Assembly: GCA_036494005.1 (NCBI GenBank)
Contig: DASXOV010000021.1
Location: 3,947-67,946 of the forward strand
Reading direction: 5' to 3'
DNA length: 64,000 nt
Source: Pseudonocardiaceae bacterium
GTDB taxonomy: Bacteria; Actinomycetota; Actinomycetes; Mycobacteriales; Pseudonocardiaceae
Shown: piece after piece, positions 10,159 through 43,361 of the stretch
Numbering within the stretch: position 1 is the stretch's first letter
Layout of the letters: the number at the start of each line of letters is the position of its first letter
Notes under the pieces: generated by a model
What the model saw: only the letters and a program-made list of their open reading frames with translations
What the model was told of the DNA's origin: nothing
Database searches by the model: none
Made by a program: the position numbers and the translations under genes

Positions 10159-11664
10159 TCAGCCGTGCTCGGCGATGTCGGTGAGTACGGCGGCCAGCGT
10201 GCGCACCGGCACCCCGGTGCCACCCTTGCCGGTATAGCCCCAGGCGGAGCCGCTGTTGTAGGCCGGACCCGCGACGTCCAGGTGTGCCCAGTCCGTGTCG
10301 TCCGGGACGAACTCGGACAGGAACACCCCGGCGGCCAGCATCCCGCCCCATCGGTGACTCATCACGTTGGCGATGTCGGCGAGCCTGGAGTCCAGATCGG
10401 GTCGCAGGTGTTCGGGCAGTGGCATCGCCCAGCCGTTCTCCCCGACCTGCTGAGAGATCGCGGTGACCCGGTCCCGGAACTCCGCGGTGCCCATGATCCC
10501 CGGCGTGCGGGTGCCCAGTGCGACCACCTGGGCGCCGGTCAGCGTCGCGACGTCGATCAGGTAGTCCGGGGCGTCCTGCGCGGCGCGGACCAGCGCATCG
10601 GCCAGGATCAGCCGCCCCTCGGCGTCGGTGTTGAGCACCTCGACGGTGGTGCCGCCGTACATGGTGAGCACATCACCCGGCCGGTACGCGGTGCCCGAGG
10701 GCATGTTCTCGGCCATCGGGACGGTGGCGATCACCTCAACCGGAAGCCCGAGCCGGGCGGCCAGCACTGTGGTGACGATCACAGCGGCGGCCCCCGCCAT
10801 GTCCATGGTCATCTCGTCCATCTTCGCCGCCGGCTTGATCGAGATCCCCCCGGTGTCGAAGGTGACCCCTTTGCCGACCAGGGCCACCTTGCTCCGGCCC
10901 GCTGTGGGAGCATCCGCGGGGGTGTAATGCAGCCGGACCAGCCGCGGCGGTCGGGAGGAGCCGACGCCGACACCGAGGATGCCGCCATAGCCCGCGCGCG
11001 CCAGGTCCTTCTCGTCGAGCACCTCGGTGTGCACTCCGGCCTGGTGCGCCAGGGCCACTGCACGGTCGGCGAAGGAGGCCGGGTAGAGGTCGTTGGGCGG
11101 CGTGTTCACCAGGTCCCGGGCGGCTGCCACCGCGTCGGCCACCGCGACGGCCTGGGTGAGCACTCGTGTCGCCGCCGCATCCTGCGCTGCGGGCACCGAC
11201 AGGTCCATCTGCCCGAGCGGTGCGTCCCCGTTCCCGGACCGGTAGACGGTGAAGGCGTAACTGCCCAGCGCGGCGCCCTCCGCGGCGGCGGCCAGGTCGA
11301 TCCGGGACAGCGTGGTGAGCGCCCGGGAGGTTCCGGCGAGCACCCGGGTTGCTGCGCCCGCGGCCCGGCGCACCTGTTCACCGGTGGGGCCGCTGGCGCC
11401 GTCGACCGCACCGAGACCAGTTGCGACCAGCAGAGGTGCCCCGAGGGCACCCCGGGTCGGGAGCTTGATCACCTCATCGGCCTTGCCACGGGCGCCCAGC
11501 ACGGCCAGCAGCTCGGCGAGCCCGCCGTCGAAAGCCGCGTCGATCTCTTCGGCCCCCGCCGCGAGCCGGACCCCGCCGTCACCCGGCACGGTGCCCACCA
11601 CGATGGCATCGACCGATGCGGTGGTCACTGCGGCATCGGTGAGACGCAGAGTCGGGCTTGTCAC
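10159..11664 (-). CDS. pepA: leucyl aminopeptidase (M17)
   Basis: M17 hallmarks [16 protein letters not shown] and [11 protein letters not shown] 11664 is preceded by GAGGAG; the 916-aa track ORF is an upstream read-through. Confidence 0.9.
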
Positions 11665-34048: not shown

Positions 34049-34204
34049 TCGGGTGGGCCGAACACCCGCCGCAGCGGAGACAACGCCGACCGTGTCCGGC
34101 CGTCACTTCGCCCGTTGCAGGCCTCGCCGTGGTGGACAGGGCTAGTGACTTTTCGTAACCTTCCCGAGACTTTGCGGCAGGTGCTTCCCAGCCGGGCGGC
34201 AACG

Positions 34205-34350
34205 CAGGTCGCTGCCGAATCGGCTTGAGTCGGGGGCCGAACCGGGGACCCAATTTCTTTGGGGTGAATCCGGGTGGTCGCATGCGTCCACCCGGTAGGG
34301 CTCGCCACTTCCAGCCCGAACCCGACAGCTAACCCGGTAGGCGGTTCGAG
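34205..34350 (+). promoter_or_regulatory. cyclic-di-AMP riboswitch (ydaO/yuaA class) in the 5' leader of the NlpC/P60 gene
   Basis: Conserved blocks occur in the canonical order: CGCUGCCGAAUC, CCGGGGACCCAA, GGGGUGAAUCC, GGUAGGG, CCCGAACCCGACAGCUAACCCGGUAGGCG. The element ends about 20 nt before the GAGGAGA RBS and GTG 34371. Confidence 0.8.
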
Positions 34351-34370
34351 GAAGAGGAGACAGACGCGAC

Positions 34371-35423
34371 GTGTCGTCGCACCGTCTGAAGCGCACCGTT
34401 CGCGGCGCAACGGCCGCCACCGCCGTCGCCGCCTTCGTGATGTTGGTGCCCAATCCGGCGACAGCTGATCCCGCACCCCCCAATGACGCCCCGACAGCGG
34501 TGCGGCAGCTGGCCGACCTGAACCATCAGGCCGAGGCGCTCACGGAGAAGTGGCATTTCGCTCGCGACCAATTGGACGCCCGCCAGGCCGACCTGGAGCG
34601 GGCCAAGTCGGACGAGGCCGCTGCCGCGGCTGCCGGACAGCAGGCGAGAGCGGTCCAGGACCAGTACCGAGGCCAGGTCGACCGGCTGACCAATGCCTCA
34701 TTCCAGGGCGCGCGACTCAACCGGCTCTCCGCGTTGCTGGTGAGCGACTCGCCGCAGGACTTCCTGGACCAGATGTCGGCGCTGGACATGCTCGCGACCG
34801 ACAACAAGGAGGCCATGGACCGCTTGACCGGTGCAGTGGCCCAAACCGAACAGGCCGCGCAGACCGCCCACGACGCCTCCACCCGGGCCGGCCAGGCCGC
34901 GAAGGACGCGGCGCGCCTCACGAGCGATCTCACCCGGGCCCGCACGGACATGGATCGTCAGATCCAGCTGGTCCAGTCGCGCCTCACCAAGCTCAACCGG
35001 GCTGAGCGAGCCTCCTACACGTCGATCGGGGACATCAACTTCCCGATCGATATCGGCATCGGCAACAGCGGTGTCGCGGCCGAAGCCCTGCGGGCCGCGT
35101 TGACCAAGCAGGGCTCGCCCTACGTCTATGGCGCCGAAGGACCCAGCACCTTCGACTGTTCCGGTCTGGTGAAGTGGGCCTTCTCGCAGGCTGGCATGTC
35201 GGGTTTGCCGCATTCGGCGCAATCGCAGGCGCAGATGGGCCAGAGTGTCAGCCGAGCGTCGCTGCAACCCGGTGACCTCATCGCGCTGTACTCACCGATC
35301 AGCCACATCGGCATCTACGTGGGGGACGGGCGGTACCTGAACGCGCCGCAAACCGGCGACGTGGTGAAGGTGTCCACGGTGCCCTGGGGTGAGGTCACCG
35401 CGATGCGCCGGATCGGGGCCTGA
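34371..35423 (+). CDS. RipC-like peptidoglycan endopeptidase (N-terminal coiled coil plus C-terminal NlpC/P60)
   Basis: Signal sequence, a long coiled-coil region, and an NlpC/P60 core (YVYGAEGPSTFDCSGLV ... HIGIYVGDG). Confidence 0.85.
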   Translation: MSSHRLKRTVRGATAATAVAAFVMLVPNPATADPAPPNDAPTAVRQLADLNHQAEALTEKWHFARDQLDARQADLERAKSDEAAAAAAGQQARAVQDQYRGQVDRLTNASFQGARLNRLSALLVSDSPQDFLDQMSALDMLATDNKEAMDRLTGAVAQTEQAAQTAHDASTRAGQAAKDAARLTSDLTRARTDMDRQIQLVQSRLTKLNRAERASYTSIGDINFPIDIGIGNSGVAAEALRAALTKQGSPYVYGAEGPSTFDCSGLVKWAFSQAGMSGLPHSAQSQAQMGQSVSRASLQPGDLIALYSPISHIGIYVGDGRYLNAPQTGDVVKVSTVPWGEVTAMRRIGA

Positions 35424-35457: not shown

Positions 35458-36579
35458 GTGCCGCGCACCCTGCTGGTGAGCAATGACTTCCCGCCCCGCG
35501 CCGGCGGCATTCAGGCCTATCTGTACGCACTGGCTCTGCTGCTGCCCCCTGGTGAGCTCGCAGTCTATGCGCCCGGCTGGCCCGGTTCGGCTGCCTTCGA
35601 CGCGCAGCTGCCGTTCCCGGTGGTCCGCCACCCGGGATCGCTCATGCTGCCCACTCCCTCGGTGCTGCGGCGAGCCGCTGGACTGCTGCCGGAACTGGGG
35701 TGCCGGACGGTGTGGTTCGGTGCCGCCGCGCCGCTGGCGTTGCTGGGACCCGCGCTGCGGCGGGCCGGCGCGCAGCGGGTGGTGGCCAGCAGCCACGGGC
35801 ACGAGGTGGGCTGGTCCATGCTGCCGCCCGGCCGCTCGGCATTACGCCGGATCGGCCGGGACGCCGACGTGATCACGGTGGTGAGCCGGTACACCCGCCG
35901 CCGGGTCAGCTCGGCGTTCGGTCCTGACGCCGCGCTGGAACTGCTCACCCCGGGGGTGGACAGCGCTGCCTTCTGTCCGGATCCTGCCTCCCGCCGGGAG
36001 ATCCGGCGCCGTTACCGGATCGGGGAGGCACCGGTGGTGGTGTGCGTCTCCCGGCTGGTGGCCCGCAAGGGCCAGGACGTGCTGATCCGCGCATTGCCCG
36101 CGATCCGCGATCAGGTGCCGGGCGCGGTGCTGCTCCTGGTCGGGGACGGGCCCCGGATCGGCACGTTACGAAGACTGGCGCGCTCCTGCGACGTCGCCGA
36201 CGCCGTGGTGTTCACCGGCGCTGTGCCGTGGTCGCAGCTCCCGGCGCATTACGCCGCCGGTGATGTCTTCGCGATGCCCTGCCGGACCCGGGGCAGGGGA
36301 CTGGATGTCGAGGGGCTCGGCCTGGTGTTTCTCGAGGCCGCCGCCGCCGGCCTGCCCGTCGTTGCCGGGCAGTCCGGCGGCGCGGCGGAGACCGTGCGCC
36401 CCGGCGAGACCGGGGAGGTGGTGAACGGCCGGGACGTGGCAGCGGTGGCACGGGCGATCGCGGAGTTGCTCGCCGACCCTGATCGGGCTGCGGCGATGGG
36501 CCGTAGCGGGCGGAGCTGGATGCAGCACGACTGGAACTGGACCTGCCGCGCGCGCCGGCTTCTCGGCTGGCTCCGTTGA
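35458..36579 (+). CDS. GT4 glycosyltransferase, PimB'-like alpha-mannosyltransferase
   Basis: LLVSNDFPPRAGGIQ N-terminus and a GT4 C-terminal EX7E-type region (GLVFLEAAAAGLPVVAG). It holds the Rv2188c position. Confidence 0.85.
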   Translation: MPRTLLVSNDFPPRAGGIQAYLYALALLLPPGELAVYAPGWPGSAAFDAQLPFPVVRHPGSLMLPTPSVLRRAAGLLPELGCRTVWFGAAAPLALLGPALRRAGAQRVVASSHGHEVGWSMLPPGRSALRRIGRDADVITVVSRYTRRRVSSAFGPDAALELLTPGVDSAAFCPDPASRREIRRRYRIGEAPVVVCVSRLVARKGQDVLIRALPAIRDQVPGAVLLLVGDGPRIGTLRRLARSCDVADAVVFTGAVPWSQLPAHYAAGDVFAMPCRTRGRGLDVEGLGLVFLEAAAAGLPVVAGQSGGAAETVRPGETGEVVNGRDVAAVARAIAELLADPDRAAAMGRSGRSWMQHDWNWTCRARRLLGWLR

Positions 36580-36586
36580 GAGCCGA

Positions 36587-37573
36587 TCACCCGAGCACGG
36601 CGTGCGCGGGCAGGCGGGCTGCGCTGTCGTGGTGCCTGCTGAGGAACGTCCACATCAGGGTGGCGGCTGCGGCCGGCTGCCCGACCGACCCGGTGCCCGG
36701 CCAGGCGTGACCCCGCCCCGGATAGACGACCGACTCCACCTCCGCGTCGCCCGCGCAGCCCGCCCACCACTGCACGATCGCCGAGCCGTCCCCTCCGGTC
36801 TGCTTCCGGTCCGTGCAGCCGTCCTGGCGACGGAGCCAGGTCAACGCCTGTGGCACAGCCGGCAGGGGTGGGTGCCCGGCTGGTCGTCCGTAGAACGGCA
36901 GTATCTGGTCCGCTGTGCCTACGGCGAGCAGGAACGGGACCGCGGCTGAGGCCGACGTGCAGGGCACCAACGGCACGGCACCGTAGGTGGCCACCGCTGC
37001 GAAGAGCTTCGGGTGCGCGCACACAGTGCGGTAGGCGAGTTTGCCGCCGTTGCTGTACCCGACCAGGTACACCCGTTGCACGTCGACCGGCCATCGGCGC
37101 AGCGCATCGGCCACGACCGCCGCGACGAACGGCACGTCCGGGATACCTGCGGTGCCTGCGACTCCGCAGCAGCCGTGTCCCGCGTTCCACGATCGATGCC
37201 GGCCGTCGGGAAACACCAGCACCACCCGCCCCTGTCGGGCCAGACCGAGGAATCCGGTCTGGTTCGCCGCCGCCTGCTCGGATTGCCCACGTCCGTGCAG
37301 CACGATCAGCAGCGGTAACCGGCCGACCGGCTGGGACGGCGCAGCGCCACGGTAGGCACGGTAGGTACGCCGGAGACCGTCGACGTTCACCGGGTACACC
37401 GTGCCGACCGGTGCGACGGTCCCGGCAACCGTGGCTGCCGATCGGGTGCCGGCGAACGACCGCTGAGCGGCGGTGGTGATCGCCGCCGCCACACCGATGA
37501 CCAGACCGATGACCAGACCGATGACGGGGGCGACCGTGACCAGCGTTCGCCATGGGCCGCCCTTCAGTCGCAT
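36587..37573 (-). CDS. secreted or membrane-anchored alpha/beta-hydrolase, PHB-depolymerase/LpqC-type esterase
   Basis: LLIVLHGRGQS, FPDG...SWNAGHGCCG and the nucleophile elbow GYSNGG, with an N-terminal TM or signal segment. The start could be ATG 37573 or GTG 37600. Confidence 0.75.
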   Translation of the reverse strand: MRLKGGPWRTLVTVAPVIGLVIGLVIGVAAAITTAAQRSFAGTRSAATVAGTVAPVGTVYPVNVDGLRRTYRAYRGAAPSQPVGRLPLLIVLHGRGQSEQAAANQTGFLGLARQGRVVLVFPDGRHRSWNAGHGCCGVAGTAGIPDVPFVAAVVADALRRWPVDVQRVYLVGYSNGGKLAYRTVCAHPKLFAAVATYGAVPLVPCTSASAAVPFLLAVGTADQILPFYGRPAGHPPLPAVPQALTWLRRQDGCTDRKQTGGDGSAIVQWWAGCAGDAEVESVVYPGRGHAWPGTGSVGQPAAAATLMWTFLSRHHDSAARLPAHAVLG

Positions 37574-37635
37574 GACCCAGAGTATGCCCAGGTCATGCAC
37601 AGCTGGTCTTCAGCTGGGCTGGTCAGGATGCGCTC

Positions 37636-39129
37636 ATGAGCCGCCTTCCCGATCTGATCACCGAGCGTGCCCTGCGCACTCCCGGCGCCCGTTTCCTGGC
37701 CGACGCGCGCGGTGATCGATCGGTCGACTTCGCGATGCTGCGCGCGGCCACCGACGCGTGGCGCCGGGAGTTGGACGCGGCGGCCGTCCCCCCGGGGGCG
37801 CGGGTGCTCGTCGATGTCGACGACCCGCTGGCCTTCGCCGTGGTCCATCTCGCCGTGATCGCCGCAGGCCGATGCTCGGCACCCGTCGACCCGGCGGTTC
37901 CGCCCGCCGAGGCGGCGCGCATCCACCGCGTCCTGCGCCCCTCGCTCGCGATCAGTGACCGGAAGAGCACCCCTGGCGCGCCGGTGGACCGGGCCACCGG
38001 CCTGCCCGGCCACCCGACGACCCTGACCCGGCCGGCCGTGCTCCCGCGCGGGCAGGCCGGTGCCGCCGCGCTGCTCACCTCCGGCTCGACCGGCACGCCC
38101 AAGACAGTCGTGCTCGGTGAGCGCCAGCTGCTCCACGTCGCGCGACGGGTCGTCGAACACCACGAGCTGACCGCAGCGGACCGGGGTTTCAACCCGCTGC
38201 CGTTGTTCCACATCAACGCCCAGGTCGTCGCGTTGCTCGCCACCCTGGTCGCCGGGGGCTCACTCGTGCTCGACCGCCGATTCCACCGCACCGGGTTCTG
38301 GCAGCTCCTGGCCGAGCACGACATCACCTGGCTGAACGCGGTGCCGGCGATACTCACGATCCTGGCGCTCGACGACGTGCCCGCGACACCGCCCGGGTTG
38401 CGGTTCATCCGCTCGGCGTCGGCGCCGCTGCCTGCGGCGACCCGGGTCCGGGTGGCTGCCCGGACCGGGGTGGTCGTGGTGGAGAGCTACGGCATGACCG
38501 AGGCGGCCAGCCAGATCACCGCCACGTCGTTGCGCGGCGGGCATCCGCCGGGTTCGGTCGGTCTGCCGCTCGGGGTGGAACTCGAGGTGGCCGGATCCGA
38601 CGGACGGCGGTGTGCACCGGATGTGGTGGGCCGGGTCCGAATCCGCGGCGAGGGGGTGATCGGTGCGTACGCCGAGGGCGGCGCGTGCGGACAGTTCGAC
38701 GCCGCCGGCTGGCTGAACACCGGTGACCTCGGGCGACTCGATGCCGATGGACACCTCTACCTGCTCGGGCGCAGCGATGACGTGGTGAACCGCGGCGGAG
38801 AGCTGGTGCACCCCAGGGAGGTCGAGGACGTCCTGCTCGGTGACGCGGCGGTCGCCGAGGTCGTCGTGGTCGCGGGCCCGCACGAGGTCCTCGGCGCGGT
38901 GCCGGTGGCGTGGATCCGGCCGGTGCGTGAGCTGGACGGCGAGCAGTCGGACCAACTCGTCGGCCGGCTACGGCGGCGTTGCGAGCAGCGGCTCAGCCGG
39001 GCGAAGCGCCCGGCGGAGTTCCGGGTCGTCGCGGGTTTCCCGCGCACCCCCACCGGCAAGGTGCTCCGTCGCCGGCTACGGGAGTTTCTCTCCACCGGCG
39101 CCGGGCGTCCTGAGTTCTCCCCCCGATGA
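37636..39129 (+). CDS. adenylate-forming (ANL superfamily) acid--CoA/carrier ligase
   Basis: ANL core motifs: LTSGSTGTPK, YGMTE, TGDLG and PRTPTGKV. Confidence 0.85.
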   Translation: MSRLPDLITERALRTPGARFLADARGDRSVDFAMLRAATDAWRRELDAAAVPPGARVLVDVDDPLAFAVVHLAVIAAGRCSAPVDPAVPPAEAARIHRVLRPSLAISDRKSTPGAPVDRATGLPGHPTTLTRPAVLPRGQAGAAALLTSGSTGTPKTVVLGERQLLHVARRVVEHHELTAADRGFNPLPLFHINAQVVALLATLVAGGSLVLDRRFHRTGFWQLLAEHDITWLNAVPAILTILALDDVPATPPGLRFIRSASAPLPAATRVRVAARTGVVVVESYGMTEAASQITATSLRGGHPPGSVGLPLGVELEVAGSDGRRCAPDVVGRVRIRGEGVIGAYAEGGACGQFDAAGWLNTGDLGRLDADGHLYLLGRSDDVVNRGGELVHPREVEDVLLGDAAVAEVVVVAGPHEVLGAVPVAWIRPVRELDGEQSDQLVGRLRRRCEQRLSRAKRPAEFRVVAGFPRTPTGKVLRRRLREFLSTGAGRPEFSPR

Positions 39130-40349
39130 CCAGGGCAGGCGAGTCCGCAGCACCCCCCAGCGGCTCGGCACCCCCCAGCGGTCCGGGGCACCTTTACCCG
39201 GCCGACCTGGTCCGGGTGCTGACCTTCGCCTGCGTCATCGCGGTGCACACGGTCACGAGCGTCAACCCACCGGACAGCGTCCCGGCGGGCGGCGCCGCGA
39301 TGCTGCTGCACTTCACCCGCGAGGTGTTCTTCGCCCTCACCGCGTTCGTGCTCGTGCACCGCTACCGGGAGCGGCTGCGGATCGTTCCGTTCTGGCGTCG
39401 CCGGCTCCGGCTGGTCGGCTTGCCCTACCTGACCTGGTCCGTCGTCTACAGCGGACTGGCGTTGATCATGGTTCCGTTGCCTCCTGCCACGGCGCTGGCC
39501 CAGCTCGGGCACAACCTGATCACCGGAACCAGCTGGTACCACCTGTACTTCCTGCTCGTCTCGATGCAGTTCTACCTGCTCTTTCCGCTGTTCCTGTTGC
39601 TGCTGCGGGTGAGCAGGGGATGGCACTGGTGGTTGCTGGCGTTCAGCGCGCTCGTGCAGGCGGTAATCGACGCCGGGCTGCACACCGTGCATCCGAGTGG
39701 CCTGGCCGGGCAGCTCCTGCCCTACGCAGGCTCGTTCGTCGGCAGCTACCCGTTCTATCTGGTGCTCGGCGGGGTGGCGGCGCTGCACGCCGATCGGCTG
39801 CAGGCGTGGGTCCGCGGCCATCGGGGGGTGGTGATCGGGGCGTTCGTCGTCACCGGTGCCGCGGCTGAGGGGTGGTATCTGCGTTCGGTGCGCGGCGGTA
39901 CCTCTCCGGTGACCGCCTCCGACGTGTTCCAGCCGGTGATGATGCCCTGGTGCCTCGCCGTGGTGGCGGCGTTCTTCGGGCTCGGTGTCGCCTGGGCGGC
40001 GCGGCGCGGGGACGGGCCGGGTTCGCGGGCCGTTGAGGTCGGCTCGGACCGCTCATTCGGGGTATTCCTGGTGCACCCGATGGTGCTGTGGGCGTTGACC
40101 GTGGGCGCGTCGCCGTGGCTACCCACGCACGTGCCCGCACCCTGGTCGACCGTTCTCGCCTTCGTCGTCACCGTTGTGGTGTCGCTGCTGCTGGTCGAGG
40201 TGCTGCGGCACAGCCCGTTGAGCCAGGTCCTCACCGGGAGGTCCCGTTTTCCTGGCAAACCAGGTGTTCCTGCTTCGCTGATTCGAGTTTTCCGTTCGGC
40301 GTCCGCCGTTCTGGCTGAACGCGGGGCGGGTATGAGGAGCCGGTCATGA
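39126..40349 (+). CDS. acyltransferase 3 (AT3) family integral membrane acyltransferase
   Basis: About 10 predicted TM helices. The N-terminal VRVLTFACVIAVH with a conserved His is typical of the OafA/OatA/SucT-type AT3 domain. ATGA overlap with the upstream ligase gene. Confidence 0.8.
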   Translation: MTRAGESAAPPSGSAPPSGPGHLYPADLVRVLTFACVIAVHTVTSVNPPDSVPAGGAAMLLHFTREVFFALTAFVLVHRYRERLRIVPFWRRRLRLVGLPYLTWSVVYSGLALIMVPLPPATALAQLGHNLITGTSWYHLYFLLVSMQFYLLFPLFLLLLRVSRGWHWWLLAFSALVQAVIDAGLHTVHPSGLAGQLLPYAGSFVGSYPFYLVLGGVAALHADRLQAWVRGHRGVVIGAFVVTGAAAEGWYLRSVRGGTSPVTASDVFQPVMMPWCLAVVAAFFGLGVAWAARRGDGPGSRAVEVGSDRSFGVFLVHPMVLWALTVGASPWLPTHVPAPWSTVLAFVVTVVVSLLLVEVLRHSPLSQVLTGRSRFPGKPGVPASLIRVFRSASAVLAERGAGMRSRS

Positions 40350-41110
40350 TAGATAGCCCGTTGTGTCTACCTCACCTTGAGTCCCATCCTCGGCGACGCG
40401 GGCTCACCATGGTCATCGATCCTGGGTTGTTCACCGGTCAATTCGAGGATGCGGTGGACAGCGTCGGCGAATTGGTCGATCTGGTGAAGTTCGGCTGGGG
40501 TACCTGTCTGGTCACCAAAGACATCAAGCGGAAGATCGACATCCTGCGTGATGCCGGTATCGGTTTCTATTTCGGCGGGACCCTGTTCGAGCGCTATGCC
40601 CTGGAAGGGCTTGTGCCGGAGTGGGTGGAACTGTGCCGTTTGATGGGCGTCACGCATGTCGAGGTGTCCAACGGCACGATCTTGATGGACAACACGGAGA
40701 AGGCCGGCTGGGTGACCCGGCTCGCCGACGAGTTCGTCGTGATCAGCGAGGTCGGTTTCAAGGACGGGGGGCGCAGCGACGCTCTCGATGCTGCGCAGTG
40801 GATCTCCTTCATCGAGGAGGACTTCGCCGCTGGGGCGCACCTGGTCACCGTCGAGGCTCGGGAGAGCGGCCGCAGCGGCATCTGCCGGGCCGATGGACAG
40901 CCGCGCCACGATCTGGTCGAGGAGATCGCCGGTTCCGGTATCGACCTCGACCGCCTGCTGTTCGAGGCTCCGAACAAGGATCTGCAGACCTACTTCCTGC
41001 GGCGGATGGGTCCCTCGGTCAACCTGGGCAACGTGCGGGCCGACGATGTGATCGCGCTCGAGACGCTGCGGCGGGGGCTGCGATCGGACACCCTGCCGGT
41101 GGTGCTGTGA
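40346..41110 (+). CDS. comA: phosphosulfolactate synthase (ComA family)
   Basis: Collinear with what I remember of M. jannaschii ComA: DLVKFGWGT, GGTLFE, VEVSNGT, VEARESGRSG, LFEAPNK, VNLGN...VIALETLRRGLRSDT. ATGA overlap with the AT3 gene. Confidence 0.9.
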   Translation: MIDSPLCLPHLESHPRRRGLTMVIDPGLFTGQFEDAVDSVGELVDLVKFGWGTCLVTKDIKRKIDILRDAGIGFYFGGTLFERYALEGLVPEWVELCRLMGVTHVEVSNGTILMDNTEKAGWVTRLADEFVVISEVGFKDGGRSDALDAAQWISFIEEDFAAGAHLVTVEARESGRSGICRADGQPRHDLVEEIAGSGIDLDRLLFEAPNKDLQTYFLRRMGPSVNLGNVRADDVIALETLRRGLRSDTLPVVL

Positions 41111-41508
41111 TGCGTACTCCTTCGGACGTGTTCCACCTGGCCATCCCGGTCGTCGACCTGGACGCCGCACAACGGTTCTACGTGGAGGGCCTCGGTTGTG
41201 ACATGGCCCGCCGTTATCCGGACCGCATAACGCTCAACTTCTTCGGCGATCAAGTCGTCTGCCACCTGTCCGACCGGGTGGATCCGGCTCCCGAGCTCTA
41301 CCCGAGGCACTTCGGCGTCACCTTCCGTGACCGGTGCGATTGGGAGCGACTGCTGAGCCTGGCCAGGGCGCAGCATCTGCCGTTCTTCGCCGGGCCTTTC
41401 CGCCGCTTCGACGGCAGGCCGGAAGGACACGACGCGTTCGTGTTACGCGATCCGTCGAACAATCTGCTCGAGTTCAAGTTCTACGACGATCCGCGAATGA
41501 TGTATTGA
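41110..41508 (+). CDS. VOC (glyoxalase/bleomycin resistance/dioxygenase) family protein
   Basis: FHLAIPVVDLDAAQRFYVEGLG N-terminal beta-alpha-beta-beta-beta module; 132 aa. Its ATG shares one nucleotide with the comA stop (TGATG). Confidence 0.75.
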   Translation: MRTPSDVFHLAIPVVDLDAAQRFYVEGLGCDMARRYPDRITLNFFGDQVVCHLSDRVDPAPELYPRHFGVTFRDRCDWERLLSLARAQHLPFFAGPFRRFDGRPEGHDAFVLRDPSNNLLEFKFYDDPRMMY

Positions 41509-41546
41509 GCCGCCCGCACTCCGCGCGGCGCGGCGGGGACCATACC

Positions 41547-43361
41547 TCAGCGCACGTAGAGGGCGTCGATATCGGCGGCGAAATCCTTGGCCACGACAGT
41601 GCGCTTGAGCTTCAGGGTGGGCGTGAGCTGACCACCGTTCTCGGTGAAGTCGACCGGCAGGACCCGGAACTTACGGATCGCCTCCGCCTGTGACACGGCC
41701 TTGTTGGCCTCGTCGATCGCGCTCTGCACCTCGGCGAGCAGGTCCGCGTCGCCGGTCAGTTCGGCTGCCGTGCTGCCCTCGGGCTTGCCGTGCTGGGCAC
41801 ACCACACCGGGACGGCCTCGGCGTCGAGGGTCACCAGGGCGGCGATGAAGGGCTGCCGGTCGCCCACCACCATGCACTGGCTGACCAACCGGTGCGCCCG
41901 GATGCGATCCTCCAGTACCGCGGGGGCGACGTTCTTGCCCGCCGCGGTGACGATGAGCTCCTTCTTCCGCCCGGTGATCCGCAGGAAGCCGTCCTGGTCC
42001 AATTCGCCGATGTCGCCGGTGTGGAACCAGCCCTCGAGGAGGGATTCCCGGGTGGCCTGCTCGTTGTGCCAGTAACGGCGCTGCACGCCGGGGCTCTTGA
42101 TGAGCACTTCACCGTCATCGGCGATCCTGATCGTGACGCCCGGTACCGGCTGGCCCACCGTGCCGACCCGGAAACCGCCTTCGGTGTTCACCGTGGAGGC
42201 CGCGCTCGTCTCGGTCAGCCCGTAGCCCTCCAGCACCGGTAACCCGACGCCGCGGAAGAAGTGGCCGAGCCGTTCGCCCAGCGGTGCGCCACCGGAGACG
42301 GCCGCGATGCACCGGCCGCCCAGCACCGCGCGCAGCTTGCCGTAGACCAACTGGTCGAACAGCGCGTGCTTGGTACGTAGGACGACTCCGGGGCCCCCGG
42401 CGTCCTGAGCCCGGCTCCACTCGACGGCTACGGCCTCCGCGGCGTCGAAGATGCGGCCCCTGCCGGTGGCGTGCGCCCGTTGTTTCGCCGAGTTGTAGAC
42501 CTTCTCGAACACGCGGGGTACCGAGAGCACGAAGGTGGGCCGGAACTCGCCCAGCTCGGCGACCAGGTTCTTCACGTCCGGGGTGTGCCCGAGGGTGATC
42601 CGGGCGTACACCGAACAGCACTGGATGATCCGGGCGAACACGTGGGCCAGCGGCAGGAACAGCAACACGGAATTGCCCGGCTGCATCAGCCGGGGGAAGG
42701 CCGACACCGCGCAACGGGTCTGCGCCAGCAGGTTGCGGTGGGTGAGTTCACAGCCCTTGGGGCGCCCGGTGGTCCCCGAGGTGTAGATCAACGTGGCCTG
42801 GTCCTCGGCACCCACCGACGCCGCTCGTTCCCGGGCGGTGTCGTCGCTGACCGAGGCACCGAGCGCGGCCAGCTCGTCGATCGCCGCGGCGGGGCCGGCG
42901 CTCCCGGTGGCGGGCTCGATCTGCCACACCGTGGCCACGTCGCCCAGCCGGTCGACCAGACCCTGCACCATCTCCCGGTGCGCGGCGTTCTCGACCACGA
43001 TCGCCCTGGCGCCGGAGTCGGACAGGATCCACTCCACCTGCTCGGGCGAGGACGTCTCGTAAATCGGCACCGTCGATCCGCCCGCGGCCCAGATGGCGTA
43101 GTCCAGCAGGGTCCACTCGTAGCGGGTCTTGGACAGCAGCGCGATCCGGTCCCCGCGCTCGATACCCGATGCGATGAGGCCTTTGGCGACCGCGGTCACC
43201 TGGTCGGCGAAGTCCCGCGCCGTGACGTCGGTCCAACCGCCGTCGACCCGGCGACGGAAGCTGATGCTGCCGGCGAACCGCTCGGCATTCGCCCACACCA
43301 CGTCGGTGAGGTTCTCCTCGTCGGCGACCATGGTGGTGGCACGAACAGTGAACTCCCGCAC
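41547..43361 (-). CDS. fadD15: long-chain fatty acid--CoA ligase (FadD15-like)
   Basis: 604 aa with ANL motifs YTSGTTGRPKG, YGLTE, TGDIG and LTPTLKLKR. GTG is preceded by GGAGGGG. Confidence 0.9.
   Translation of the reverse strand: MREFTVRATTMVADEENLTDVVWANAERFAGSISFRRRVDGGWTDVTARDFADQVTAVAKGLIASGIERGDRIALLSKTRYEWTLLDYAIWAAGGSTVPIYETSSPEQVEWILSDSGARAIVVENAAHREMVQGLVDRLGDVATVWQIEPATGSAGPAAAIDELAALGASVSDDTARERAASVGAEDQATLIYTSGTTGRPKGCELTHRNLLAQTRCAVSAFPRLMQPGNSVLLFLPLAHVFARIIQCCSVYARITLGHTPDVKNLVAELGEFRPTFVLSVPRVFEKVYNSAKQRAHATGRGRIFDAAEAVAVEWSRAQDAGGPGVVLRTKHALFDQLVYGKLRAVLGGRCIAAVSGGAPLGERLGHFFRGVGLPVLEGYGLTETSAASTVNTEGGFRVGTVGQPVPGVTIRIADDGEVLIKSPGVQRRYWHNEQATRESLLEGWFHTGDIGELDQDGFLRITGRKKELIVTAAGKNVAPAVLEDRIRAHRLVSQCMVVGDRQPFIAALVTLDAEAVPVWCAQHGKPEGSTAAELTGDADLLAEVQSAIDEANKAVSQAEAIRKFRVLPVDFTENGGQLTPTLKLKRTVVAKDFAADIDALYVR

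Follow-up and report, generated by a model that had tools for sequence, protein, structure and literature searches.

A portable five-gene island around a ComA-family enzyme and a FosA-like VOC protein, with a possible role in sulfonated acyl transfer outside the cytoplasm

Contig DASXOV010000021.1 of a Pseudonocardiaceae bacterium was analysed over a stretch of 64,000 nucleotides (the window, to which all positions refer unless a locus is named), in which a gene for a ComA-family phosphosulfolactate (PSL) synthase lies within a compact cluster. This cluster is a conserved, portable five-gene module that combines ComA with an ANL adenylate-forming ligase, a stand-alone AT3 membrane acyltransferase, a small VOC metalloenzyme and a divergently encoded esterase, and it sits in the window as a discrete 5-kb insertion. 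The island may make a small sulfonated acyl group and deliver it to an extracytoplasmic acceptor; we give this proposal an even chance of being correct, and within it we infer the identity of the acyl group, the chemistry of the VOC protein and the acceptor. The features of the locus are as follows.

36554..41546, strand not applicable: inserted five-gene island, delimited by backbone alignment to loci L083, L084 and L085
36587..37600, minus strand: divergent membrane-anchored or exported alpha/beta-hydrolase esterase (Pfam Esterase_PHB and DLH matches)
37636..39129, plus strand: ANL adenylate-forming ligase (Pfam AMP-binding and AMP-binding_C, 1e-46)
39126..40349, plus strand: stand-alone AT3 membrane acyltransferase (Acyl_transf_3, PF01757, 3e-36, profile positions 5-325 of 326)
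40346..41110, plus strand: ComA-family phosphosulfolactate synthase (PF02679, 1e-77, profile positions 3-243 of 243)
41110..41508, plus strand: FosA-like VOC metalloenzyme (Glyoxalase, PF00903, 3e-12)

The module and its distribution

Evidence that these genes belong together comes from their recurrence in other genomes. GTDB representatives contain at least 584 ComA homologues. A ComA alignment was searched against one genome per GTDB species, and the 80 closest ComA loci were taken, most of them from metagenome-assembled genomes (MAGs) and all with a ComA 54-86% identical to that of the window. Partners were detected by tblastn with the window proteins, and further partners by clustering of open reading frames (ORFs) together with Pfam checks. 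Counts refer to partners no more than 6 kb from ComA in the 51 loci with complete flanks, each of which comes from a different species and has 5 kb or more of sequence on either side. A VOC gene is adjacent to ComA in 78 of the 80 loci, and within the complete-flank subset the partners were found at these frequencies.

VOC protein: 51 of 51 complete loci
ANL ligase: 50 of 51
AT3 acyltransferase: 47 of 51
All four genes (ANL, AT3, ComA and VOC): 47 of 51
Exported alpha/beta or SGNH hydrolase: 35 of 51
Histidine phosphatase (His_Phos_1): 21 of 51

The carriers comprise Pseudonocardiales, Nocardia, Frankia, Streptosporangiales, Acidimicrobiia, Alicyclobacillus and Acidobacteriota, with Pseudonocardia acidicola K10HN5, Actinomycetospora chiangmaiensis DSM 45062, Nocardia albiluteola and Alicyclobacillus kakegawensis among the cultured ones, and the genes occur in at least eight different orders (a slash separates divergently transcribed parts).

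Esterase (minus strand) / ANL-AT3-ComA-VOC: Pseudonocardiales, Actinomycetospora
SGNH-ANL-AT3-ComA-VOC: Nocardia
AT3-ANL-ComA-VOC: an Acidobacteriota MAG, Alicyclobacillus (L073) and others
Divergent AT3-ANL / ComA-VOC: Frankia
HisPase-ComA-VOC-AT3-ANL: Streptosporangiaceae, Nocardiopsis
(AT3-)HisPase-ComA-VOC-ANL-AT3: Acidimicrobiaceae, Trebonia
ANL-ComA-AT3-VOC and ANL-ComA-VOC-AT3: also present among the loci
ANL-ComA-VOC, AT3 not nearby: L032, L033, L034, L038, L044

That the gene content stays constant while its order is reshuffled from phylum to phylum argues strongly for a functional unit. A first-pass annotation of this DNA had staked its idea on the co-occurrence of the four plus-strand genes, which is borne out by the count above. 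By Pfam checks, the recurrent hydrolase is an alpha/beta protein in some loci and an SGNH/GDSL protein with a membrane anchor in others; the divergent esterase itself is conserved beside the operon in Pseudonocardiales, in 26 of the 51 complete loci. Where a histidine phosphatase is encoded, it lies directly beside ComA or VOC, and in L044 a HAD hydrolase takes its place.

Some variants of the module may be noted here. The loci with no AT3 nearby are those of some Actinomycetospora and of unclassified Actinomycetota, and sister Actinomycetospora retain both AT3 and the esterase; in L044 the HAD hydrolase is upstream and an SGNH protein downstream. Conversely, two AT3 paralogues flank a HisPase-ComA-VOC-ANL core in Acidimicrobiaceae and relatives (L078, L077, L067, L061, L050, L065 and L074), an arrangement that hints at two acceptor sites or two acceptors. 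In L078 an additional ORF past the second AT3 is, by sequence, a candidate exported SGNH/GDSL-like protein.

Within the window, the four plus-strand genes overlap by their stop and start codons, as had been reported: the ANL stop and the AT3 start share an ATGA at 39126-39129, the AT3 stop and the ComA start share an ATGA at 40346-40349, and the ComA/VOC junction reads TGATG at 41108-41112. A GAGGAG Shine-Dalgarno sequence lies 5' of the ComA start, and relatives show identical 4-nt overlaps at the corresponding junctions. Such overlaps are ordinary in high-GC operons and are unremarkable taken alone. Nucleotide similarity to module-bearing Pseudonocardiales sets in sharply at about 36608-36632 and ends at 41508-41516; because the similar span takes in the gene at 36587-37600, the divergent esterase is counted as the fifth gene of the unit. 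The earlier description of a four-gene operon was thus right in that the four genes are conserved together, but it overlooked the esterase.

The borders of the island are defined by a conserved backbone with the order qcrB-qcrA-qcrC-ctaE, trpD, NlpC/P60 and a PimB-like GT4 glycosyltransferase on one side and FadD15, a metallophosphoesterase and an ArsA-like ATPase on the other. In three related Pseudonocardiaceae genomes (L083, L084 and L085; GT4 77-85% identical) the GT4 and FadD15 genes are directly adjacent, and the alignment of the window to these backbones ends at 36551-36553 and restarts at 41539-41556. Positions 36554-41546 are a discrete insertion between the PimB-like GT4 gene and fadD15. 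One of these three genomes, assembly GCA_050699955.1, has GT4 next to FadD15 (L083) and carries the module on another contig (L009), so the location of the island differs among close relatives. As a discrete insertion, the island must function on its own. The first-pass annotation had drawn support for an envelope role from the position between the PimB-like gene and fadD15; this argument fails because the island was inserted where the two genes are otherwise adjacent, and a functional tie to them was rejected on the same backbone comparison.

The G+C content falls to 0.64-0.67 across the 3' half of AT3, ComA and VOC (39500-41500), against 0.70-0.74 in the flanks, a dip consistent with horizontal acquisition of the island. 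Inspection of the island borders revealed neither a target-site duplication nor a mobility gene. A scan for promoters and terminators returned zero promoter-like sites and 1 terminator-like site against 1.5 expected; an Rfam search gave no regulatory RNA inside the island, and a tRNA search none within the window.

The encoded proteins

Pfam searches confirm the ANL, AT3, ComA and VOC families that had been named for the four plus-strand genes. The ComA homologue is, as first described, full length and collinear with archaeal ComA: its residues 17-250 align with chain residues 12-248 of 1QWG (E 4e-45). Its closest solved structure is Bacillus subtilis YitD (1U83, E 6e-72, residues 3-250). Against the NCBIfam model TIGR03849 (arch_ComA) it scores 222 bits, under the cutoff of 280 bits, and so ranks as a family member and not as an archaeal equivalog. 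Across 81 sequences of the clade, some 60 positions show conservation of at least 97%; among them are the motifs VKFGWGT, GGTLFE, VEVSNG, SEVGxKD, EARESG and FEAP, and also those motifs that the clade has in common with the archaeal and Bacillus PSL synthases. A bacterial ComA homologue, XcbB, makes phosphosulfolactate from phosphoenolpyruvate (PEP) and bisulfite (PMC9457059). From its sequence, the window ComA is predicted to catalyse the conversion of PEP and sulfite to phosphosulfolactate.

No Streptomyces locus is among the 80 closest ComA loci. A plasmid tblastn yielded, besides a remote VOC, a distant ComA (32% identity) on a plasmid of Streptomyces sp. NBC_00211 (L081, 349090-365794), where it lies in a cluster of nonribosomal peptide synthetase/polyketide synthase (NRPS/PKS) type with genes for an acyl carrier protein (ACP), two ketosynthase-like proteins, an SbnB-like protein, an MbtH protein and a methyltransferase, and with no VOC gene. 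Clusters of this type occur on six Streptomyces plasmids, and this ComA looks like a separate case with a different use in natural-product biosynthesis.

All core motifs of the ANL ligase can be read in its translation: A3 (TSGSTGxPK), A5 (YGxTE), A7 (TGD), A8 (GRxDDxxxxGG) and the A10 lysine. Its nearest solved structures are oxalyl-CoA synthetases (6e-55), MenE and malonyl-CoA synthetases; these neighbours activate short or anionic diacids, such as the C2-C3 acids oxalate and malonate, and are not long-chain fatty acyl-CoA ligases. All NCBIfam equivalogs are far under their cutoffs, the best being FadD7 at 251 against 650 bits. These sequence comparisons predict a (sulfo)acyl-CoA ligase whose substrate is a small anionic acid. 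Sulfoacetate is an isostere of malonate.

The AT3 protein, for which a crude hydropathy scan gives approximately 9-10 hydrophobic segments (about 10 transmembrane helices are typical of the family), contains both the R-X10-H motif (R30...H41) and the RxxR motif (RRRLR), which are held to bind acyl-CoA (PMC9558356, from which the motif definitions are also taken). AT3 enzymes take acyl-CoA donors, and the members MdoC/OpgC, ExoH and IcaC transfer succinyl groups; the AT3-only protein WecH can pass its acyl group to a separate SGNH protein, PatB (PMC9558356). Like MdoC/OpgC, ExoH and IcaC, the window AT3 stands alone and would handle an anionic acyl group, so that an acyl-CoA donor and an extracytoplasmic acceptor would be expected here too, the substituent would alter surface charge as in the succinyl systems, and a separate Ser-hydrolase partner is possible, as for WecH with PatB. 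The mycobacterial AT3 protein SucT likewise installs succinyl, and OatA and OafA install acetyl. Known AT3 systems draw their donor from central metabolism, whereas the window would supply a sulfonated donor by a dedicated three-enzyme pathway. The candidate partner encoded in the window, the divergent esterase, has an N-terminal hydrophobic anchor and a GYSNGG nucleophile elbow, its likely start being the ATG that gives MRLKGG at the N terminus.

The VOC protein is a single module of 132 aa and is extremely well conserved (54-86% identical across phyla). The four canonical metal positions of the VOC superfamily, on strands beta1, beta4, beta5 and beta8, are occupied by the conserved residues H9, H52, H67 and E121, as judged from sequence conservation and an AlphaFold model; they lie at or beside strands 9-14, 47-53, 68-72 and 119-125, and R34, R39, R66, R99, K123 and several tyrosines are conserved as well. 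These residues suggest a metalloenzyme with a small polyanionic substrate. The AlphaFold (AF2) model (pLDDT 92.6) has the paired beta-alpha-beta-beta-beta fold. It superimposes with a TM-score of 0.96 on PDB entry 3RRI from Alicyclobacillus acidocaldarius (structural genomics; 63% sequence identity), an apparent orthologue from a genus that carries an AT3-ANL-ComA-VOC cluster. The nearest characterised folds are the Fos enzymes FosA, FosB and FosX (TM-score 0.65-0.74, identity 11-23%). These share the VOC fold and bind small anionic substrates (phosphonates) at the metal, but the conserved Arg/Tyr/His set of the window protein differs and an epoxide substrate is not expected.

A VOC search yielded about 1,800 protein clusters, and the wider family, clustered at 50%, numbers 185 representatives at E<=1e-10. 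The ComA-linked subgroup has the signature Y36/D38/R39/D47/C51/E105, and its sister subgroup is cyanobacterial; look-ups of clusters in the representative library pointed to Acidimicrobiia, Nitrospirota, Niallia and cyanobacteria. Homologues at least 70% identical came only from Pseudonocardiaceae among the matches listed, and the gene neighbourhoods of remote relatives in Proteobacteria and Streptomyces pointed to no function. In metagenomes the ComA-linked family also appears in fused or duplicated forms (P0126, 476 aa; P0161, 484 aa; P0122, 280 aa, in tandem; P0233 and P0236, with the VOC domain C-terminal), and the fusion partners could hint at the VOC reaction.

A possible pathway and its alternatives

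The closest published parallel to the module is misNOPQ (ACP, ligase, ComA and glyoxalase), which belongs to the misaugamycin gene cluster of Streptomyces sp. WAC00631 and is also present in S. fradiae (ATCC 19609), S. spectabilis (NRRL 2792) and S. xinhaiensis; its authors regard it as a mobile cassette (Xu et al. 2022, PMC9136965). It is predicted, as a prediction only, to supply the N-terminal 2-sulfoacetyl group of the glycopeptide misaugamycin-B; a malonyl congener of misaugamycin exists, and sulfite feeding favours the sulfonated product (PMC9136965). The first-pass annotation, which knew of no characterised system with such a composition, has to be amended in this respect. The mis ligase, ComA and glyoxalase/VOC genes are adjacent and in the order seen in the window, a likeness in published gene composition, and the window unit, too, has the form of an inserted island. 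The two differ in that misNOPQ includes an ACP and supplies an NRPS, whereas the window module has an AT3 and an exported hydrolase and no carrier protein: ORFs with a phosphopantetheine-attachment motif were found in 0 of the 80 loci and not in the window island, which agrees with what was first said of the window.

In the proposed pathway, ComA, as its family membership suggests, would join sulfite to PEP to give 2-phospho-3-sulfolactate, from which a phosphatase, often cluster-encoded in relatives and presumably acting in trans in this genome, would strip the phosphate to leave sulfolactate. The VOC protein would then turn this C3 sulfonate into the acid to be activated. By analogy with the mis cassette this speculative product is most likely sulfoacetate, which is favoured because no other member of misNOPQ is a candidate for the loss of carbon. 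The chemistry may, as a speculation that is chemically plausible, be an O2-dependent oxidative decarboxylation; to our knowledge, all the carrier taxa are aerobes. ANL would next form the acyl-CoA thioester, a role assigned to it because the solved structures closest to it include ligases for oxalyl- and malonyl-CoA and because AT3 donors are acyl-CoA. AT3 would carry the acyl group across the membrane, where the exported esterase or SGNH protein would complete or trim the transfer to an acceptor that is probably a wall or surface glycopolymer. The outcome would be a permanently anionic sulfonate ester at the cell surface.

The outline of this route, in which a sulfonated acid is activated and then passed by AT3 to an extracytoplasmic acceptor, had been suggested by the first-pass annotation, and it fits the ANL relatives, the intact AT3 motifs and the recurrent exported hydrolases; among the readings considered it has the strongest support. 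The acceptor named there, of lipomannan/lipoarabinomannan type, cannot be the general one, because the module is also found in Bacillota (Alicyclobacillus), Acidobacteriota and Acidimicrobiia. The comparison with the Dlt system (DltA-D) holds loosely. Dlt modifies an envelope polymer by means of an adenylating enzyme, an acyltransferase that is a polytopic membrane protein and an SGNH-like protein that is exported, so the logic of activation and transfer is shared; but the window has no DltC-type carrier, its acyltransferase is an AT3 and not an MBOAT protein (DltB), the acyl group would not be an amino acid, and the donor would probably be a CoA thioester.

An alternative keeps the same machinery and destination but has the C3 acid itself transferred, as a 3-sulfolactyl group, with the VOC protein catalysing an epimerisation, an isomerisation or another non-oxidative step, comparable to methylmalonyl-CoA epimerase or glyoxalase I. 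ComA and a phosphatase would suffice to make sulfolactate, and a histidine phosphatase is often encoded nearby; VOC enzymes that are small and have a single module usually act as isomerases, epimerases, lyases or transferases, the nearest folds (Fos) are not oxygenases, and the module encodes neither a dehydrogenase nor a decarboxylase. Against this, the sole chemically characterised product tied to a ligase-ComA-glyoxalase cassette is the C2 group 2-sulfoacetyl, and the ANL relatives use the C2-C3 diacids oxalate and malonate, the latter the isostere of sulfoacetate. The 3-sulfolactyl alternative is unlikely.

Another alternative changes the destination, and the product would be a metabolite, either diffusible or in the membrane, in place of a decorated envelope polymer. 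In one form of it, AT3 would move the sulfonated acyl group onto a small molecule or a lipid; in another, it would place an ANL-activated fatty acid on sulfolactate to give a sulfonolipid or surfactant. Some AT3 enzymes do acylate antibiotics (macrolides) and Nod factors (PMC9558356). The best NCBIfam match of ANL is FadD7-like, though far under the cutoff, the Streptomyces mis cassette feeds a secondary metabolite, some loci are without AT3, and ComA is found in the NRPS/PKS cluster on Streptomyces plasmids. However, genes for scaffold biosynthesis (NRPS, PKS or sets of glycosyltransferases) do not travel with the module in the 80 loci, and the window island has only five genes; exported Ser-hydrolase partners (SGNH or alpha/beta, with a signal or anchor sequence) are a typical feature of extracytoplasmic polymer acylation, and the structural neighbours of ANL are short-diacid and not long-chain ligases. 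A metabolite product is distinctly improbable.

The module could also serve in sulfite detoxification or sulfonate catabolism, with ComA trapping toxic sulfite, or liberating it by the back reaction, and the remaining genes processing or exporting the product. ComA chemistry does use up sulfite, and many carriers come from acidic soil or peat, where sulfite/SO2 stress is plausible, but an ATP-consuming ligase, an AT3 and exported esterases would have no role in detoxification, and the conserved neighbours in the loci include no sulfonate transporter, Xsc, SuyAB, sulfite exporter or sulfite oxidase; this use of the module is highly improbable.

Coenzyme M biosynthesis of the archaeal ComABCDE or bacterial XcbABCDE type, for which the full-length ComA homologue speaks, can be dismissed as having a negligible chance, in agreement with the first-pass annotation: tblastn with the Xcb-region proteins of Nocardioides JS614 matched only ComA, and no XcbA/C/D/E homologue, in the window and the 80 loci (no separate search was made for archaeal ComB/C/D/E). 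The family assignments of the genes up to about 5 kb from the operon are other than those of the coenzyme M pathway, the archaeal equivalog cutoff is not reached, and the coenzyme M-type ComA of JS614 shares just 44-45% identity and has quite another set of neighbours, namely lyase-family and pyridoxal phosphate (PLP) enzymes. The archaeal ComABCDE, bacterial XcbABCDE and YitD routes have a first enzyme family in common with the window ComA, but their downstream genes were not found, and the invariant VOC partner is lacking in those pathways. B. subtilis YitD presumably acts with YitC in a sulfolactate pathway.

Several points weigh against the transfer of a sulfonated acyl group to an extracytoplasmic acceptor. 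We know of no characterised 132-aa VOC protein that forms sulfoacetate by C-C bond cleavage. For the mis cassette, too, the role is a prediction, and the relation of the window proteins to MisO/P/Q is an analogy drawn from the published gene composition; the literature searched held no biochemical follow-up of the mis cassette and no report of a sulfoacetylated or sulfolactylated glycan. A search for a ComB-like or histidine phosphatase found none in the island or the 64-kb window; an earlier remark on the missing ComB phosphatase is correct for the window, but many relatives have a histidine phosphatase or HAD hydrolase beside ComA. The neighbouring genes give no clue to the acceptor. Five loci have no AT3 nearby (for L033 and L038 the flanks are incomplete), so the sulfonated acyl-CoA may have other fates. 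Finally, the co-occurrence figures cover only the clade whose ComA is at least about 54% identical to that of the window.

A broader version of the proposal can be put forward, tentatively and with clearly more doubt than confidence. It holds that O-sulfoacetylation or sulfolactylation of wall or surface glycopolymers is widespread and unrecognised in soil Actinomycetota, Alicyclobacillus and Acidobacteriota, giving a surface that would be negatively charged even at very low pH, and that it is conferred by a portable five-gene island whose FosA-like VOC protein carries out a new reaction, the formation of sulfoacetate from phosphosulfolactate or sulfolactate, perhaps through O2-dependent cleavage of a C-C bond. 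If this is true, sulfonate acyl esters would form a new chemical class beside the acetyl, succinyl, D-alanyl and pyruvyl decorations of the envelope, and AT3 acyltransferases would in this case be served by a dedicated pathway of donor synthesis. A function would be assigned to the tightly conserved ComA-VOC pair, of which one VOC orthologue, 3RRI, has stood in the PDB since 2011 with no function assigned, and the origin of the 2-sulfoacetyl unit in misaugamycin-type antibiotics would be explained. The island is small and self-contained, and it could serve to install sulfonates on glycans or natural products.

Habitat of the carriers and other features of the window

Record titles indicate that the carriers are often acidophilic taxa or come from acidic soil or peat (Pseudonocardia acidicola, Alicyclobacillus, Acidimicrobiia, Acidobacteriota, Trebonia, and MAGs from palsa and SPRUCE peat). 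This acidic-habitat bias may be a sampling bias. A sulfonate remains charged at low pH, and carboxylates do not.

At L083 the gap between GT4 and FadD15 holds a different insert of about 570 bp (10187-10629 of that locus), with two short ORFs (65 and 67 aa) that are paralogous, rich in Cys and marked by CPHC...C..C motifs; the GT4-fadD15 gap looks like a recurrent insertion spot. Outside the island, a c-di-AMP riboswitch of the ydaO type (RF00379, 86 bits) was detected at 34203-34358 on the plus strand, directly 5' of the gene for an NlpC/P60 peptidoglycan hydrolase (34371-35423). The pairing of this riboswitch with an NlpC/P60 gene is known in Actinobacteria.

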